From positions 412,933 through 476,932 of the forward strand of contig JBAZYF010000001.1 in the NCBI GenBank assembly GCA_041659505.1: 64,000 bases of DNA, read 5' to 3'. Under the pieces are notes generated by a model. That model was not told the origin of the DNA. It saw only the letters and a list, made by a program, of their open reading frames with translations, and made no database searches. This document shows positions 33,177 through 38,777 of the stretch, piece by piece. Positions within the stretch are counted from its first letter, which is position 1, and each line of letters begins with the position of its first letter. This DNA is from Parcubacteria group bacterium. GTDB taxonomy: Bacteria; Patescibacteriota; Minisyncoccia; Moranbacterales; UBA2206. Position numbers and translations under genes: made by a program.

Positions 33177-33641
33177 TTATTTTTTGTTAAACTTTAATAT
33201 CAGGAGAAAAGCTCCTAAGCAGATAAAAATATCCGCTAGATTAAAAACTGGCCAAACCCTCAGATCGATGAAATCAATCACGCAACCATTATACAGGCGA
33301 TCGAGCAAATTTGAAATAGCACCGGAAAGAATGAGGACAAGGGGATAATTTAAAATTTTAAATTTAAAATTTGAATTCAATTTAAAATTATTAAATTTAA
33401 TAATTTCTAATTCATTGAAAATTTTAAATTTCAAATTTAAAATTAAAAAACTAGCAAAAGCAAGAATAGCGATAATAAGTCCTATTATTAGCCAATTTGG
33501 TAGGTTTATTCCAAACGCAATGCCCTTGTTACAAATATAAAATCCGCCCGAAGAGCGGATGATATATTTAGCTGACTGATCAATAAAAATCAGTAAGATT
33601 GTGAGCAAAAATATTTTTTTATTCGCAGATTCGCATTTCAT
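33177..33641 (-). CDS. lspA: Lipoprotein signal peptidase II
   Basis: 154 aa, 4 TM. The conserved C-terminal NLADIFICLGAFLLI. Carries an AT-rich low-complexity insertion (KF-rich) at 33350-33440. Confidence 0.78.
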   Translation of the reverse strand: MKCESANKKIFLLTILLIFIDQSAKYIIRSSGGFYICNKGIAFGINLPNWLIIGLIIAILAFASFLILNLKFKIFNELEIIKFNNFKLNSNFKFKILNYPLVLILSGAISNLLDRLYNGCVIDFIDLRVWPVFNLADIFICLGAFLLILKFNKK

Positions 33642-33660
33642 TCGTAGTTTCGAATCGGAT

Positions 33661-34008
33661 TTAGCATTTAATGCAGGTCTTGGCGCTAGGATTAGCTTTT
33701 AGCCTTTCGATGTCAATTTCTTTTTGGCAATTTTCACAAAGGCCATAGGTGCCTTTTTCCATCCGGTCTAGTGCACTAATCACTTCTTGCAAATTTTTCT
33801 CGAGAGTTATTTCCACAGGTAAATTGTCTGTATATTGTTCGACTTCGGTCGTGTTGTCTTCGCGGTCAGCCCCGACTTCGCCAAAGGTGGTTTCATAATC
33901 CCCTTTTTCTTTGTCGACTGGTCTCGCTATGCGCGCCAAATTTTCTTCTAGCTCTGCCTTTTCTTTTAATAAAAGAGCCTTAAGCTCATCTTGAACATTC
34001 TTCTCCAT
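33661..34008 (-). CDS. DksA/TraR-family C4 zinc-finger protein
   Basis: N-terminal coiled-coil; C-terminal CENCQKEIDIERLKANPSAKTCIKC (C4 finger). Confidence 0.75.
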   Translation of the reverse strand: MEKNVQDELKALLLKEKAELEENLARIARPVDKEKGDYETTFGEVGADREDNTTEVEQYTDNLPVEITLEKNLQEVISALDRMEKGTYGLCENCQKEIDIERLKANPSAKTCIKC

Positions 34009-34089
34009 TTGATTAGTTTAATTGGTTATATTTGCGACGATTATATGTTAGCAAAAAAATCGAGACTTGTCTATTATTGATAATTTGAG

Positions 34090-34506
34090 CTAGATTGACC
34101 TTATGTGTTTTATTTTGGCTCTTCTCGTTATTTCATTGATCCAAACTGCAATCACATCAAAGCGATAATCGCAGGCAGTGAGATTGTTTTGCTTTAGGTA
34201 AAAATAAGCGATTTTGTCCAGCTTTTGCATCTTATGATAGTTGACGTTTTCTTCCGGATTGGTATTTTTGAATTTTTGCATCTCACGAGATTTTACTTCG
34301 ACAAAAACCAGCTCGTCTTTTGCCTTATCTTTCGCGATAATGTCAATTTCTCCCAAGCGGCGTCCGCTGGGATTGGCATAATTTAGAGCAATAATCTCGT
34401 AGCCTTTATTTCGGAGATAGTTGGCGGAGATGGTTTCGCCCAAGTTTCCTAGTGATTTTTTGGGTGTGATGGTCATGTTTCTAGTATAGCAAGAATTTTC
34501 AGTCAA
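34090..34506 (-). CDS. UPF0102/YraN-family endonuclease-like protein
   Basis: ...KSLGNLGETISANYLRNKGYEIIALNY...GEIDIIAKDKAKDELVFVEVKSRE... matches YraN. The start is probably the internal ATG at 34476. Confidence 0.72.
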   Translation of the reverse strand: MTENSCYTRNMTITPKKSLGNLGETISANYLRNKGYEIIALNYANPSGRRLGEIDIIAKDKAKDELVFVEVKSREMQKFKNTNPEENVNYHKMQKLDKIAYFYLKQNNLTACDYRFDVIAVWINEITRRAKIKHIRSI

Positions 34507-34948
34507 ACAAAAAACACCCTTTCTTTGGTGCTTGTTTTTGTTTAATTGTTAATACTTTTTTCCACTGGTTTCGATAAGGTATGGAAACCAGTGGGCTCAA
34601 CACCCAATAATAAATAAATTTGGCGAGAACCCACCGGTGTTTGTCATGTAACAACATGCAACACGGAAACATTTTTCGAGGGTGAGTTCGATTGTGTTAA
34701 ATGATGTGCATGTACTATGTCTACATAACGCAAGATTATCCTTAATCTGACGCTTTTTGGCTTAAGAATTTTGTTTTACCATTCTCTGGTGAATTTATCA
34801 CCTTTGAATTTGAAGGTACTGTGCTAGAATTTTCTAGCGTTTTTTAATTTTTGTTTTTTATTTTTACAAAAATTTTTGTTTTTATTTTTAGGGTCTCTGA
34901 TGTCAGAAATCAGAGCGGCCATCGCTCGTTGGCGACAACACTTGAACA

Positions 34949-35020
34949 GTAAAACAATTTTCAATCGCAGATAGGGGGAAATTGCGATTGAAAATTGTTT
35001 TACCGTTTTTCTCTCGTGTT
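34949..35020 (+). terminator. Very strong intrinsic terminator-like hairpin (perfect 21-bp stem, 13-nt loop, then T-run) in the middle of a 770-bp ORF-free region
   Basis: GTAAAACAATTTTCAATCGCA-gatagggggaaat-TGCGATTGAAAATTGTTTTAC followed by cgTTTTTCTCTCGTGTTTTT. No plus-strand ORF lies upstream, so it may terminate a non-coding transcript from about 34520-34950. Confidence 0.45.
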
Positions 35021-35276
35021 TTTAATGTTCAATATATTTATTATAGCAGGAAAAAAGCTCTTGGTCAATGGTAGAAATCATTAGGCTTAAATGGGGCACT
35101 GTTTGCATCGGGCTATTTTTTGAAAATTCTATTTTGGTTTCATTTAGTGGCCTGTTTTATAAAGTAATTTACTTTATAAATCTTAGGATAAGCCATTGTT
35201 TATCAATCATGTGACTGTTTGGAGTGTCTGGCTCCTGTTCATATCGCGGCATTGTAAATCTATCTTTTTAGCCAGG

Positions 35277-36491
35277 CTAATTTGCAGTATCAGAAGTTGT
35301 AATTTTATCGATAATTGCAAACATTGTCGCCTTGGTAACTCCTAGATAAAGATTATTTCCATAAAAGCTGTAGTCGATAGAGAGATTATCTGGAGAAATT
35401 ATGTTTTGATAGCGAATGTTTACTCCTGAATAGGTAGTACTGAGAAATGGTCTGGTATTGTCGTAGGAATTTTGAGTAAAAAAGAGCGGATTGACCTCAT
35501 CAGCAAGATCTTTTTCCTCTTGTAAGAGTACTTTTGCAAGATTGATGTTGTCCCGTGATTCGATTGATAATCCTATTTTTGGCATTGAGGCATCATTGTG
35601 GATATATAGGCTGAATTTGTCACCCAAAAGAGCCATAAGTGCAGGGGAGAATTTCAGGCCCATTAGATCGGAAAAAGTCTTGAAATTAAGTGGTTTGTTT
35701 TGAGCATCTGTCACGATGAATTCAATTGGAGCTGTGTAATTTCCCAAGGAGACTTTTCGCATGTATTGTTCTAGGGTAGCTTTGATTTTTTTTGGGTCAA
35801 AATCAGATGTTTCTAATCGGAGATAATTAGGGCTTGTTTGTGAGTAAGATAGGGTTACTGGTTGCTCTGGTTCTTTGTTTTGGTTTTGTATTTCTGGTTT
35901 TGCAGTATTTTTTATGAGGGGCAAAGTGATTTTATCAAAAGGGTTGAAATTATTATCGCGATAATAGCTAAGGCCGATCCAGCTCAAGAGAATAAGAAGG
36001 ATTGAGGAGAAAATAGAAAAAAAGATCAGGCGCCAACTACGATGAGTAATAGAGTACTCTTTTACCATCGATGGAGTCGGTTTTAATTTGGAAGAAGTAG
36101 TAGGTATTTCTGGTTCAAATCTTTTCTGTGCTCGTGTGACTGTCATTGGATCATTATTTTCAACAGATTTTGTTCTTTTTGCGATATTTGCTATCAAGTC
36201 ATCTGGTTGAAGTTTGTCATCCGTGACAATAATTCCGCTTAGGGGATTTTTGTCGGCCAAATTAGAGAGTGGGCTGTTGCTTTGTTTATGAGGCAAGGGA
36301 GTTTGATTGGGTTGGTCGCTTTTTTCTTCACCCACAATCATTTTATGGTTGATGCCGGGAAGCTTCAGGTCTTCTTGCATTGTATATATCGGTGCCTCAT
36401 CAACATTAAAAGCTGAAGGTATCGCCTGATCTTCGAAATTATTTTTTTTTGCTGATTGATCTGGAGAAACTTTTTTTGTAAAACCGAACAT
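35277..36491 (-). CDS. Hypothetical protein with a central transmembrane helix
   Basis: 404 aa. Pro/Ser-rich N-terminal half, TM (WRLIFFSIFSSILLILLSWIGLSYY), then a C-terminal extracytoplasmic domain. Confidence 0.45.
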   Translation of the reverse strand: MFGFTKKVSPDQSAKKNNFEDQAIPSAFNVDEAPIYTMQEDLKLPGINHKMIVGEEKSDQPNQTPLPHKQSNSPLSNLADKNPLSGIIVTDDKLQPDDLIANIAKRTKSVENNDPMTVTRAQKRFEPEIPTTSSKLKPTPSMVKEYSITHRSWRLIFFSIFSSILLILLSWIGLSYYRDNNFNPFDKITLPLIKNTAKPEIQNQNKEPEQPVTLSYSQTSPNYLRLETSDFDPKKIKATLEQYMRKVSLGNYTAPIEFIVTDAQNKPLNFKTFSDLMGLKFSPALMALLGDKFSLYIHNDASMPKIGLSIESRDNINLAKVLLQEEKDLADEVNPLFFTQNSYDNTRPFLSTTYSGVNIRYQNIISPDNLSIDYSFYGNNLYLGVTKATMFAIIDKITTSDTAN

Positions 36492-36589
36492 TTTTTTATT
36501 CTATCCCTAGCCACTTTATTCAGAAGGTTATATTTGTGGTCAGTGGACTTTTTTTAAATTTATTTATATACAAAGGGGATGATTATTGT

Positions 36590-36668: not shown

Positions 36669-38777
36669 TTATTCCGCTTGATTTGCCAGTCTTGCTGAAA
36701 GATTAATCCGGCCTTGTGAGTCGATTTCTTTGACCTTGACTTTCACAATATCTCCGACGCTCAGAACATCTTCCACTTTCTCAATCCGTCTCTCAGCAAT
36801 TTCAGAAATATGAATTAGTCCTTCTTGTCCTGGGAGGATTTCCGCAAAGGCGCCAAAGGCCATGATGCGGGTCACTTTGGCATTAAAGATTTCTCCTGCT
36901 TTGACTTCGTGGGTGAGATTGTCAATCCATTCCTTGGCTTTTCCGGCAGAAACTTGGTCAGGCGAAGTGATGAAAATCATACCGCTGTCTTCAATGTCGA
37001 TTTGCACGCCAGTCTGATCAATGATTTCATTGATGATCTTGCCACCAGTTCCAATGACATTTCTGATTTTCTCTGGATTGATCTGCATTGTGATGATTCT
37101 TGGGGCATATTGGGACATCTCGGTGCGTGGTGCTGGCAGAACATCGGTAATTTTTTTCAAAATCTCCAGACGATTTTGGTGAGATTGGGTCAGAACCGCA
37201 GCGAGCATTTCCAGTGTGACTCCGTCAACTTTCACATCCATCTGCATCGCTGTGATGCCTTTTTCCGTTCCAGCTACCTTGAAGTCCATATCACCGTAGT
37301 GATCTTCCAAGCCTTGAATGTCAGTAAGAATCTTGAATTTATTATTTTCTCCGACAATAATTCCCATAGCAATTCCGGAAACTGGGCGCTTGATCGGCAC
37401 GCCAGCATCCATCAGCGATAGTGTCGAACCGCAAGTGGAAGCCATGGAAGATGATCCATTGGAGGAAAGAATTTCAGAAACTAAAAGAATGGTATATGGA
37501 AATTCCTCTTTGGATGGTAAAACTGGAACGAGCGCTTTTTCGGCCAGCGCGCCATGTCCCACTTCTCGTCTTCCCGGTCCTCGCATTGGACGGACTTCTC
37601 CGACTGAATATGGCGGAAAATTGTAGTGATGGATGTAGCGTTTTTTCATGTCTACCTCCATCGTATCGATAATCTGCTGGTCACCAGGCGAACCGAGTGT
37701 CGTGACTGTGAGGGCTTGGGTTTCTCCGCGGGTGAATAGTCCGGTTCCATGAGTCCGTGGCAAGAGGCCTGTTCGACATTCAATATGGCGGATTTCATCT
37801 AGTTTTCGTGAATCCGGGCGCAATTCTTTTTCGAGAATATTTTTATGTACGATTTCATCGGATACCTCCTCAAAGACAATTTCAGCTACTTCTTTCAATT
37901 TCGCTTCTTCTTCTGGAAAAGTTGCTTTGATGTAGTCCTTGACTTTGTCATTGATCGCACTCATCTTTTCCTCGATTACTTTCTTGTCTTTGTCATACAA
38001 TGCTTCAGCTAGATTTTCAGTCATTAAAATTTCTTTGACTTTAGCTTCAAATTCGGGTGTTCCAGCCACAAGCGTTGGCACATTTTTTTCTTTCCCTATT
38101 TCCTTTTGAATTTCTAAAATGAAACCGACAATCTTTTTGATTGCTTCTTGTCCAAAAGTAAAGGCTTTGAGCATTTCTTCTTCAGAAATTTCCATTGCGC
38201 CACTTTCTATCATATTGACTTTGTCAGCACTGCCGGAAATCAAAAGATCAAGTTCGCCTTCAGCTAATTCTCCATTGCTGACTGGATTAAGCACAAACTC
38301 CCCACCGGCTTTTCCGACGCGTACAGCAGCGACTGGACCATTCCAAGGAATATTTGATATGGCGAGAGCAGTCGAAGCAGCGATGATAGCAATCGTATCA
38401 GGGTCGTTTTCTCCATCATAAGAAAGTACGGTCACAATTACTTGCACGTCATTTCGCATCCGGTGGTTGAAAAGTGGACGGATTGTTCGGTCGACGGCGC
38501 GTCCGGAAAGGACGGCGTCATCGGATGGGCGGCCTTCACGTTTGATAAAACGCGAGCCTTTGATTTTCCCGGCGGCATAATAGCGTTCTTCGAAATCTAC
38601 CATCAAAGGGAAATATCCACAGACGCGGGATGCGCCTTTACTCATGACAGCCGTCGCAAGTACGACTGTGTCGCCATAACGCACTGTGACGGCGCCATTA
38701 GCTTGTCCGGCTAAAAGGCCGTTTTCGATTTCCAAGATACGTCCCCCAATTTGGAGAGACCATTTCTTTTGATCCAT
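36669..38777 (-). CDS. pnp: Polyribonucleotide nucleotidyltransferase (PNPase)
   Basis: 702 aa. Two RNase PH domains plus KH and S1 (...GEIFNAKVTRIMAFGAFAEILPGQEGLIHISEI...). Synteny with rpsO. Confidence 0.95.
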   Translation of the reverse strand: MDQKKWSLQIGGRILEIENGLLAGQANGAVTVRYGDTVVLATAVMSKGASRVCGYFPLMVDFEERYYAAGKIKGSRFIKREGRPSDDAVLSGRAVDRTIRPLFNHRMRNDVQVIVTVLSYDGENDPDTIAIIAASTALAISNIPWNGPVAAVRVGKAGGEFVLNPVSNGELAEGELDLLISGSADKVNMIESGAMEISEEEMLKAFTFGQEAIKKIVGFILEIQKEIGKEKNVPTLVAGTPEFEAKVKEILMTENLAEALYDKDKKVIEEKMSAINDKVKDYIKATFPEEEAKLKEVAEIVFEEVSDEIVHKNILEKELRPDSRKLDEIRHIECRTGLLPRTHGTGLFTRGETQALTVTTLGSPGDQQIIDTMEVDMKKRYIHHYNFPPYSVGEVRPMRGPGRREVGHGALAEKALVPVLPSKEEFPYTILLVSEILSSNGSSSMASTCGSTLSLMDAGVPIKRPVSGIAMGIIVGENNKFKILTDIQGLEDHYGDMDFKVAGTEKGITAMQMDVKVDGVTLEMLAAVLTQSHQNRLEILKKITDVLPAPRTEMSQYAPRIITMQINPEKIRNVIGTGGKIINEIIDQTGVQIDIEDSGMIFITSPDQVSAGKAKEWIDNLTHEVKAGEIFNAKVTRIMAFGAFAEILPGQEGLIHISEIAERRIEKVEDVLSVGDIVKVKVKEIDSQGRINLSARLANQAE

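Follow-up and report, generated by a model that had tools for sequence, protein, structure and literature searches.

A predicted gene for a large, highly structured non-coding RNA upstream of yraN in Moranbacteria

Introduction

What is encoded in a 770-bp stretch that contains no long open reading frame (ORF) and separates a gene for a 404-amino-acid membrane protein from yraN in the genome of a Parcubacteria group bacterium of the order Moranbacterales? The stretch occupies positions 34507-35276 of the window, by which we mean the whole 64,000-nucleotide segment of contig JBAZYF010000001.1 (positions 412,933-476,932; assembly GCA_041659505.1) analyzed here. A preliminary description, made from the sequence alone, had proposed a rightward-transcribed non-coding RNA of 350-450 nt that ends at a strong plus-strand terminator. 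Our comparative analysis shows that the gap holds an independent transcription unit, read leftwards, whose predicted product is a conserved and highly structured RNA.

Large, intricately folded bacterial RNAs are rare, and those with known roles (rRNAs, RNase P RNA, transfer-messenger RNA (tmRNA), and group I and II introns) either serve as catalysts or have a central place in the cell. Others, such as the OLE, GOLLD, and ROOL RNAs, proved structurally remarkable, and RNA-only oligomers have been seen for these three. The Moranbacteria are ultra-small members of the candidate phyla radiation (CPR, or Patescibacteria), whose tiny genomes contain hardly any non-coding DNA. For such a genome, it is therefore a real investment to keep a 0.5-kb RNA gene that is conserved and has a near-consensus promoter.

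Results

The predicted transcription unit and its strand

The absence of ORFs of at least 60 amino acids from both strands of 34507-35276, stated in the preliminary description, was confirmed. The longest ORFs between the start of yraN and the stop codon of the 404-amino-acid gene (35277) comprise 57 (34499-34672, minus strand) and 49 amino acids (35196-35345, plus strand). yraN starts with the ATG at 34476, and counting from an upstream TTG in the same frame (34506) gives a 138-amino-acid ORF. The following elements are predicted in the gap:

34505-35033, minus strand: non-coding RNA gene (window, ~525 nt; relatives, 508-603 nt)
35040-35068, minus strand: promoter of the RNA gene (-35 element TTGACC at 35068-35063, 17-nt spacer, extended -10 element TGcTATAAT at 35048-35040)
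34505-34533, minus strand: intrinsic terminator of the RNA found by a terminator scan (AAGCACC-AAAGAAAG-GGUGUUU followed by a U-tract)

A consensus scan of 33500-36500 returned this promoter as the best promoter-like site (11 of 12 positions plus the TG motif), and transcription is predicted to start near 35033. The promoter elements (CATTGACC-17-TGCTATAAT) are invariant in 9/9 aligned relatives, while the sequence upstream of them is not conserved, and the promoter was also found in the outgroup loci L039, L040, and L041 (L numbers denote the homologous loci that were compared). In the minus-strand alignment the first ~200 nt past the stop codon of the 404-amino-acid gene are poorly conserved. 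Within the clade, conservation then runs from the promoter down to an invariant terminator-like site, AAGCACCAAAGAAAGGGTGTTTTTTGTTTT, and ends at its U-tract. This terminator is invariant among the clade members, including its loop, and takes the form GCACC-loop-GGUG-U7-8 in the outgroups. A promoter and a terminator of its own that bound the conserved stretch, compensatory substitutions (see below), and the lack of a conserved ORF together characterize a stand-alone structured RNA gene.

The strand was assigned from the alignment. The consensus helices contain 186 G·U cells versus 9 A·C cells, and 97.9% of the cells pair on the minus strand compared to 90.2% that would pair on the plus strand. 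Because of this asymmetry and of the conserved promoter and terminator, we place the RNA on the minus strand between ~35033 and 34505. The preliminary description was thus right in postulating a conserved, structured RNA of several hundred nucleotides, but erred in the strand, in the boundaries, and in the size, which is roughly 525 nt in the window.

The large hairpin that had been taken for a plus-strand terminator does exist at the claimed place. Its 25-nt arms (34945-34969 and 34983-35007) are 96% complementary and enclose 13 nt, and the plus-strand sequence directly after it reads CGTTTTTCTCTCGTGTTTTT. However, a directly adjoining T-run occurs only in the window and in L032, where it comes from a 5' flank (GAGAGAAAAACGG) common to these two sequences only; the other relatives read CCGTTCGCAGATGCAAGTTTTTAATG or similar, and their plus-strand T-run begins ~15 nt past the stem. 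The hairpin forms the first helix of the minus-strand RNA. A rightward transcript ending at this hairpin also conflicts with the minus-strand promoter to its right, the minus-strand terminator at 34533-34505, and the 186 G·U pairs, which would become A·C mismatches; moreover, conservation extends well past the hairpin to the minus-strand promoter. As the preliminary description itself remarked, no plus-strand gene lies upstream of the hairpin. A conserved plus-strand promoter is absent there as well, the best plus-strand site in the region matching 9/12 positions without being conserved.

The terminator scan flagged one further minus-strand site at 34913-34927 (GAGCGATGGCCGCTC followed by TGATTTCTGA). 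It was rejected, as it lies inside the RNA and spans the 3' strand of helix H2 and the start of helix H3.

Distribution and conservation of the homologues

Eight syntenic loci were fetched through homologues of the 404-amino-acid protein, and seven of these contigs span the whole gap, which measures 726-790 nt in them. Three outgroup loci were fetched via distant YraN homologues (66%, 60%, and 59% identity); synteny is kept in them, with gaps of 702, 836, and 868 nt. Across the 11 relatives in which the full gap between the 404-amino-acid gene homologue and yraN was measured, its length is 702-868 nt. In every Moranbacteria relative fetched, the homologue of the RNA occupies the same place between these two genes, and all true copies have the gene order PNPase / 404-amino-acid homologue / RNA / yraN / dksA-like / lspA / comM. 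Searched with a profile of the clade RNA, all three distant loci gave matches on the same strand (E = 5e-137, 1e-38, and 4e-41), the latter two values belonging to L040 and L041, whose YraN proteins are 59-60% identical. The syntenic alignment that the preliminary description had suggested thus revealed a stretch, from promoter to terminator, which is conserved in every relative examined.

The DNA of the RNA gene is 75-86% identical to the window in clade members and 67-68% in two outgroups. The corresponding values are 74-84% for PNPase DNA and 36-56% for the adjoining untranscribed spacer. Judged from these alignments, the RNA gene is conserved as much as PNPase, whereas the adjacent spacer is not.

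When one genome per GTDB species was scanned with a 19-mer across the hairpin loop, eight true loci were recovered, five of them from genomes named Candidatus Moraniibacteriota; a ninth match, in a Prevotella metagenome-assembled genome (MAG), lacks the promoter and terminator and was dismissed as a chance match. Scanning metagenomes with an invariant 19-mer from the 3' domain yielded further full-length and partial copies, and six matches inside coding genes that were discarded as chance. Viral contigs searched with the H1 apex gave 0 matches. An nhmmer profile found one copy per locus on the minus strand, its only other match being the palindrome itself on the opposite strand; behavior as a paralogue family or repeat element was rejected on account of this single copy.

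No ORF on either strand is common to all homologues. A TTG-initiated frame runs through H1 in some of them and is interrupted in the window, L008, L010, L026, L032, L034, L040, and L041. The source annotation places a 57-amino-acid gene inside the RNA homologue at L006:6456-6629. The 57-amino-acid ORF of the window (34499-34672, minus strand) lies elsewhere in the RNA and is not homologous to it, and both frames are probably spurious calls that arise because the RNA is not annotated.

One metagenome (ENA ERZ27247358) contains both L001 (k141_1012271, the organism of the window) and L041 (k141_1326113), a second and more distant Moranbacteria species with a 59% identical YraN. Each of the two organisms carries its own version of the RNA. 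The contig of the window was also located in Logan SRR6484325.

Consensus structure and covariation

According to the alignment-based model, the RNA has ~16 helices and two structured domains, between which lies a conserved, A-rich linker with an (A5N)n pattern. The 5' domain has three hairpins and is preceded by the 5' tail AUAUUGAACAUUAAAAAC. The elements of the RNA are, in 5' to 3' order:

34944-35008, minus strand: helix H1, 25-28 bp (5' arm 35008-34981, 3' arm 34972-34944)
34970-34982, minus strand: near-invariant, C-rich apical loop of H1, AUUUCCCCCUAUC
34893-34941, minus strand: helices H2 (34941-34932 with 34925-34917) and H3 (34916-34909 with 34901-34893)
34847-34890, minus strand: A-rich linker with the two direct repeats UAAAAAUAAAAACAAAAAU and UAAAAAUAAAAAACAAAAAU, (A5N)n pattern, two (A5N)3 repeats
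34643-34838, minus strand: core of the 3' domain, a multibranch fold
34838-34823 and 34802-34788, minus strand: small hairpins of the 3' core
34789-34771, minus strand: invariant CCAGAGAAUGGUAAAACAA in the 3' core
34769-34738, minus strand: helix H8 with an AGUYAGA loop
34729-34704 with 34664-34643, minus strand: multibranch helix enclosing a hairpin with the invariant loop CUCACCC (34686-34680)
34646-34637, minus strand: invariant segment UGACAAACAC
34638-34627 with 34598-34587, minus strand: long hairpin H13
34562-34594, minus strand: 3' hairpin, CCACUGGUUUC with GAAACCAGUGG

The 531-nt stretch folds better than dinucleotide shuffles of itself (z = -8.0 for the minus and -6.3 for the plus strand; 0/100 shuffles as good). 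That this is more than chance was decided by the comparative evidence, namely the conservation from promoter to terminator and the compensatory changes in every relative examined. RNAalifold predicted 96 pairs from 13 sequences, 22 of which show compensatory double changes. With 21 sequences the consensus comprised 123 pairs in 16 helices, in which the 97.9% of paired cells compare to 37-42% in slid controls (3' partners shifted by 1-3 columns) and 35 pairs are changed on both sides compared to 4-9 in these controls. When the 5' domain was evaluated in 23 sequences including outgroups, 16/45 pairs had double changes versus 1-5 after sliding. The covariation test that the preliminary description had called for, done here by counting compensatory changes, hence supports the fold.

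An out-of-sample test was provided by L040 and L041, which had been located by synteny and not via the RNA, and which were not used in deriving the structure. Their single-sequence folds give the same series of helices from different bases. Outgroup H2 reads UUUGAG/CUCAAA, H3 CCGUCG/CGACGG, H8 GUGUUA/UAACAC or GUGCCU/AGGUAC, and the multibranch closing helix CGAUAUG/CAUAUCG, while the loops AUUUCCCCCUAUU, AGUYAGA, and YUCACCC are kept in place. An all-against-all search of column covariation for pseudoknots and long-range helices found nothing convincing.

Helix H1 is paired in 97.6% of the cells of alignment A5, and five of its pairs carry double-sided changes, such as A-U to G-C in seven sequences and G-C to A-U in three; in L040 and L041, different bases make up the lower stem. 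Its loop is identical, or differs by a C to U change of the last base alone, in 21/23 sequences including the outgroups. In two metagenome lineages (L022:528-1043 / L035:1486-2001 and L037:5228-5742), the loop is replaced by the unrelated UUAGUCAUUCAU, with the stem and the remaining RNA kept. In the same alignment, H2 and H3 are paired in 100% and 98.9% of the cells and show double-sided changes in 6/9 and 5/8 pairs, respectively. The linker repeats are conserved in all sequences, including the positions of the C and U bases. L005, L008, L011, L013, L019, L026, and L032 have an extra, GC-richer 16-bp hairpin (GGUAUGUCCACUUAGG...CCUAAGCGGACAUGCC) inserted between the repeats. A T-run directly follows this hairpin on the opposite strand (e.g., L005:6570-6640), where it would resemble an intrinsic terminator.

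In the 3' domain, helices 7 to 12 have 2, 4, 3, 6, 3, and 3 pairs changed on both sides. The central part of this domain has alternative pairings, e.g., CCUU/AAGG competing with UACC/GGUA around 34818-34777. The invariant unpaired stretches of the whole 3' domain are CCAGAGAAUGGU, the AGUYAGA loop, the CUCACCC loop, UGACAAACAC, and GGUUUCCAUA. H13 is paired in 99.5% of the cells, with double-sided changes in three pairs. The 3' hairpin corresponds to the 11-bp hairpin of the preliminary description (CCACTGGTTTC...GAAACCAGTGG at 34562-34594), which was found as described. It is present in 18/21 sequences (L010, L017, and L041 being without a clear one) and covaries, with the pairings CCCUGGUUUC/GAAAUCAGGG, CGUCGGUUUUC/GAAAACCGACG, and GGGGUUU/AAACCCC. 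The 3' strand of H13 and the 3' hairpin overlap by seven alignment columns, or 8 nt in the window (34594-34587), so that both cannot fully form. The shared segment is altered in the window (CCCACU) and in L034 (CCCGUC), and both of its partners are altered to match. Because both partners changed, selection appears to act on both helices, a sign of a conformational switch. A linker of ~30-40 nt separates these alternative helices from the terminator stem, with which they do not overlap.

Comparison with known RNA families

The preliminary description had not recognized RNase P RNA, tmRNA, or the signal recognition particle (SRP) RNA by eye, and this was borne out by Rfam, ARAGORN, and motif tests. 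The Rfam scan it had suggested matched no family at this locus in the window, the relatives, or the outgroups: with Rfam 15 at the gathering score, the whole window and eight relatives gave no match at the gap (tRNAs were found elsewhere), and at E <= 10 in 34300-35500 and E <= 1 in the three outgroup loci there was hairpin-shaped noise, e.g., plant miRNA models.

RNase P RNA (RF00010/RF00011) was rejected, as no covariance model matched the window, eight relatives, or the outgroup loci, the conserved regions CR-I (GGAAAGUCC) and CR-V (ACAGAAnnnGGCUUA) are present exactly in 0/19 homologues with near-matches not positionally conserved, and the covariation scan found no long-range P4-like helix. 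Since RnpA is encoded in the window, a conventional RNase P RNA is expected elsewhere in the genome. Neither is the RNA a tmRNA: ARAGORN found none in the window and six relatives, the T-arm and CCA motifs are absent, the 3' end is a terminator, and neither a conserved tag frame nor an ORF common to all homologues was seen. 6S RNA, a single rod of ~180-200 nt with a central bubble, was rejected because Rfam gave no match and the fold found here is a two-domain, multi-hairpin structure of ~525 nt. The bacterial SRP RNA has no Rfam match in the gap and its domain IV motifs are absent; canonical ssrA and ffs genes are expected elsewhere in these genomes. OLE RNA (RF01071) likewise has no Rfam match, and where an oapA-type gene would be expected next to it, the neighboring 404-amino-acid protein has neither a Pfam family nor a significant fold match. 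A literature search on structured or large non-coding RNAs of the CPR, Patescibacteria, and Moranbacteria found no description of this RNA.

Neighboring genes and genome context

The neighboring genes all lie on the minus strand: PNPase (36669-38777), the 404-amino-acid protein (35277-36491), the gap, YraN/UPF0102, a DksA/TraR-type zinc-finger protein, LspA, and ComM. Between the RNA and yraN, and outside the RNA, lies one further predicted element:

34474-34491, minus strand: promoter and start codon of yraN (extended -10 element TGcTATACT at 34491-34483, ATG at 34476-34474)

This extended -10 element (TGCTATACT or TGCTATAAT) is kept as TGCTATA(C/A)T in all clade members (alignment columns 896-906), where it ends 6 nt before the ATG and no Shine-Dalgarno sequence is present. 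A -10 element just 6 nt from the start codon implies that the yraN mRNA is leaderless, as it appears to be in the clade from these positions. The outgroup equivalents are TGGTAGAAT and TGCTACAAT; there, the promoter is ~50 nt from the start codon. Most of the 45 long ORFs of the window also have no Shine-Dalgarno sequence, and the 20 nt before their starts are A-rich (e.g., aaaaaaATG, aaataaatATG). The A-rich linker of the RNA resembles these A-rich stretches preceding start codons.

The lineage-specific 404-amino-acid protein evolves fast (34-55% identity where PNPase has 88-94%), and every locus with the RNA also has a homologue of it. Its first 146 residues are disordered; a single transmembrane helix (147-178) follows, and then an alpha/beta domain at the C-terminus that is predicted with confidence and is apparently extracytoplasmic as far as the topology can be told from the flanking charges. 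No Pfam family and no significant PDB fold match were found (best match DcrB, E = 0.028), and from this domain and fold analysis no link to the RNA as a partner emerged. In NCBI the protein is a hypothetical protein of Parcubacteria group bacterium, with relatives from Candidatus Moranbacteria / Moraniibacteriota MAGs.

An AT-only palindrome at 35156-35180, TTTATAAAGTAA-A-TTACTTTATAAA (consensus AAAAGTAAATTACTTTT), is located ~100 nt upstream of the -35 element of the RNA promoter. It is kept in 9/9 clade relatives, in which the surrounding spacer is not, and is only partly recognizable in the outgroups. It could mark where the transcript of the 404-amino-acid gene ends, or bind a protein by which the RNA promoter is controlled.

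At the left end of the window, an origin-type gene cluster extends over 953-6030, and the GC skew changes sign near 2 kb:

953-2113, minus strand: dnaN
2381-3760, minus strand: dnaA
4166-4303, plus strand: rpmH, assigned by eye from the translation
4331-4669, plus strand: rnpA, assigned by eye (location downstream of rpmH, RNR-type motif)
4705-5490, plus strand: yidC
5554-6030, plus strand: gene for a KH-R3H Jag/KhpB RNA-binding protein

This cluster and the skew switch are 30 kb away from the gap, for which a role as replication origin was therefore rejected.

Discussion

Taken together, these results make it probable that the gap harbors an independent minus-strand gene for a large, highly structured non-coding RNA, the "Moranbacteria large RNA", which would act in trans and most probably serve as a subunit or scaffold of a ribonucleoprotein (RNP). 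The following steps of this proposal are given in order of falling confidence. The RNA would be a stable, abundant housekeeping RNA working in trans and not a leader of yraN, because yraN keeps its own extended -10 element after the terminator, in the clade as well as in the outgroups. Its size, its ~16 helices, and its many invariant unpaired stretches would bring it closer to OLE-like RNP or structural RNAs than to antisense regulators, and the invariant loops and A-tracts may be docking sites. By switching between H13 and the 3' hairpin, the RNA would hide the invariant UGACAAACAC and make it accessible in turn. The long perfect helix of H1 is a plausible processing site for RNase III, for which a 26-bp perfect helix is an expected substrate. 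Lastly, the (A5N)3 repeats fit the (ARN)6 pattern bound by the distal face of Hfq and might be sites for such a protein.

Several points weigh against this interpretation. That the RNA acts in trans as an RNP or structural RNA is the most likely role, for which its anatomy is the sole basis. No convincing target site of the C-rich H1 loop was found in the 64-kb window, nor was a partner protein. The promoter, transcription start, and terminator of the RNA are predictions from sequence motifs. The loop of H1 was replaced in two lineages and thus cannot be universally essential. The main clade is shallow (protein identities of 88-94% for PNPase and 83-95% for ComM, though only 34-55% for the 404-amino-acid protein); the sampled diversity is narrow and covers one order-level CPR lineage, and part of the observed conservation reflects short divergence times. 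Although 0/500 shuffles of the 21 sequences reached the observed pairing and double-change values, relatedness alone can exceed this control, and it is the slid controls and the outgroup test that carry weight. Finally, a position on the same strand immediately upstream of yraN and alternative 3' helices are also what one would expect of a cis-acting attenuator.

The main alternative, which we regard as unlikely, is accordingly a cis-acting leader or attenuator of the yraN-dksA-lspA-comM cluster, in which the switch between H13 and the 3' hairpin would sense a ligand or protein and, in response, regulate either termination at 34533-34505 or the blocking of the yraN promoter. The RNA resembles riboswitch and attenuator leaders in that it precedes the operon on its strand in all loci and ends in a terminator, the two mutually exclusive helices are both supported by covariation, the U-tract of the terminator overlaps the -35 region of the yraN promoter, and the terminator stem is short with even its loop invariant within the clade. 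Yet the conserved extended -10 element, which lies between the terminator and yraN in clade and outgroups, gives yraN a start of its own, and the switch spares the terminator stem, from which the alternative helices are ~30-40 nt away. For these two reasons, an assignment to the riboswitches or attenuators was rejected. Furthermore, L010 and L041 keep the rest of the RNA without the 3' hairpin, Rfam detected no known aptamer, and a length of ~525 nt, ~16 helices, and a near-consensus promoter are unlike known leaders.

We see a slightly smaller chance, and a low one, that the RNA is a trans-acting regulator whose C-rich loops (CCCCC in H1 and CUCACCC in the 3' domain) base-pair with G-rich target sites. 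Such targets would be complementary to AUUUCCCCCUAU or, in the L022 and L037 genomes, to the substitute loop UUAGUCAUUCAU. In Firmicutes, the C-rich loops of the small RNAs RsaE and RoxS pair with Shine-Dalgarno sequences, and our RNA resembles these in its two invariant C-rich apical loops on stable stems; the swap of the whole H1 loop with its stem kept is also how a change of target would look. However, it is 3-5 times larger than RsaE/RoxS-type RNAs, and most window genes have an A-rich pre-start region and lack a G-rich Shine-Dalgarno sequence. The best complement of the loop in the window is an unconvincing 9-mer at 59380-59388. An antisense regulator would need neither an RNA of this size nor nearly as many helices and invariant unpaired stretches.

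It is very improbable that the gap contains no RNA gene at all and is instead an ordinary spacer with a regulatory role, a decayed pseudogene, a gene for a small protein, or an element that acts as DNA (for instance an operator palindrome or an AT-rich unwinding element). As DNA, H1 does form a near-perfect palindrome, AT-rich direct repeats make up the linker, and one gene caller placed a 57-amino-acid gene in the homologous region of L006. The compensatory changes, the G·U asymmetry, and the non-palindromic invariant loop nevertheless point to selection on a single-stranded RNA, the homologues share no ORF on either strand, the origin-type cluster and skew switch are distant, and the true spacer next to the gene has diverged to 36-56% identity. 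The least probable alternative, the plus-strand RNA of 350-450 nt that ends rightwards at the hairpin, can draw on the T-rich run after the hairpin in the window and on the good folding of the plus strand (z = -6.3), but we consider it practically dismissed by the rarity of that run, the lack of a conserved plus-strand promoter, the mismatches it would create, and the extent of conservation described above.

The reading as a trans-acting, RNP-type RNA thus remains the preferred one, and it has practical consequences. As the RNA matches no Rfam 15 family, annotation pipelines leave gaps of 700-870 bp blank in these genomes or fill them with spurious small ORFs. The conserved gene points to unexplored biology in the largely uncultured CPR epibionts, and the alignment, boundaries, and consensus structure make the RNA directly testable. 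At somewhat under even chances, and hence tentatively, we propose that it represents a new class of large (0.5-0.6 kb), ornate non-coding RNAs specific to Moranbacteria, which would rank with OLE, ROOL, and GOLLD. It would be an RNA machine that contains its own conformational switch and works as an RNP core, as an assembly of RNA alone, or as a ribozyme. Streamlined genomes of ~1 Mb would have retained it for a housekeeping task that is specific to the lineage and is not carried out by any known RNA family.

With RNase P RNA and tmRNA this RNA shares its length, its own promoter, a housekeeping neighborhood, and high sequence conservation, but its 3' end is an intrinsic terminator. It resembles 6S RNA in its long helices, its strong promoter, and its presumed nature as an abundant stand-alone housekeeping RNA, and differs from it in having ~525 nt, ~16 helices, and two domains. 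In overall character it also resembles OLE RNA (ornate, large, extremophilic) and the further large orphan RNAs ROOL, GOLLD, and raiA. In contrast to these, its hosts are CPR bacteria of the Moranbacteria and neither Firmicutes nor phage-associated, and it has no Rfam match. The neighbor here is a membrane protein with a single transmembrane helix that has neither a Pfam nor a significant fold match, and, to our knowledge, none of these RNAs has been described with two domains joined by an (A5N)n linker and with a perfect hairpin of 26 bp. Like them, however, it is an RNA whose function is not deducible from its sequence, which is located among housekeeping genes and beside a membrane-protein gene, and which combines a length of ~0.5-0.6 kb with many helices, many invariant unpaired nucleotides, and a restriction to one lineage.

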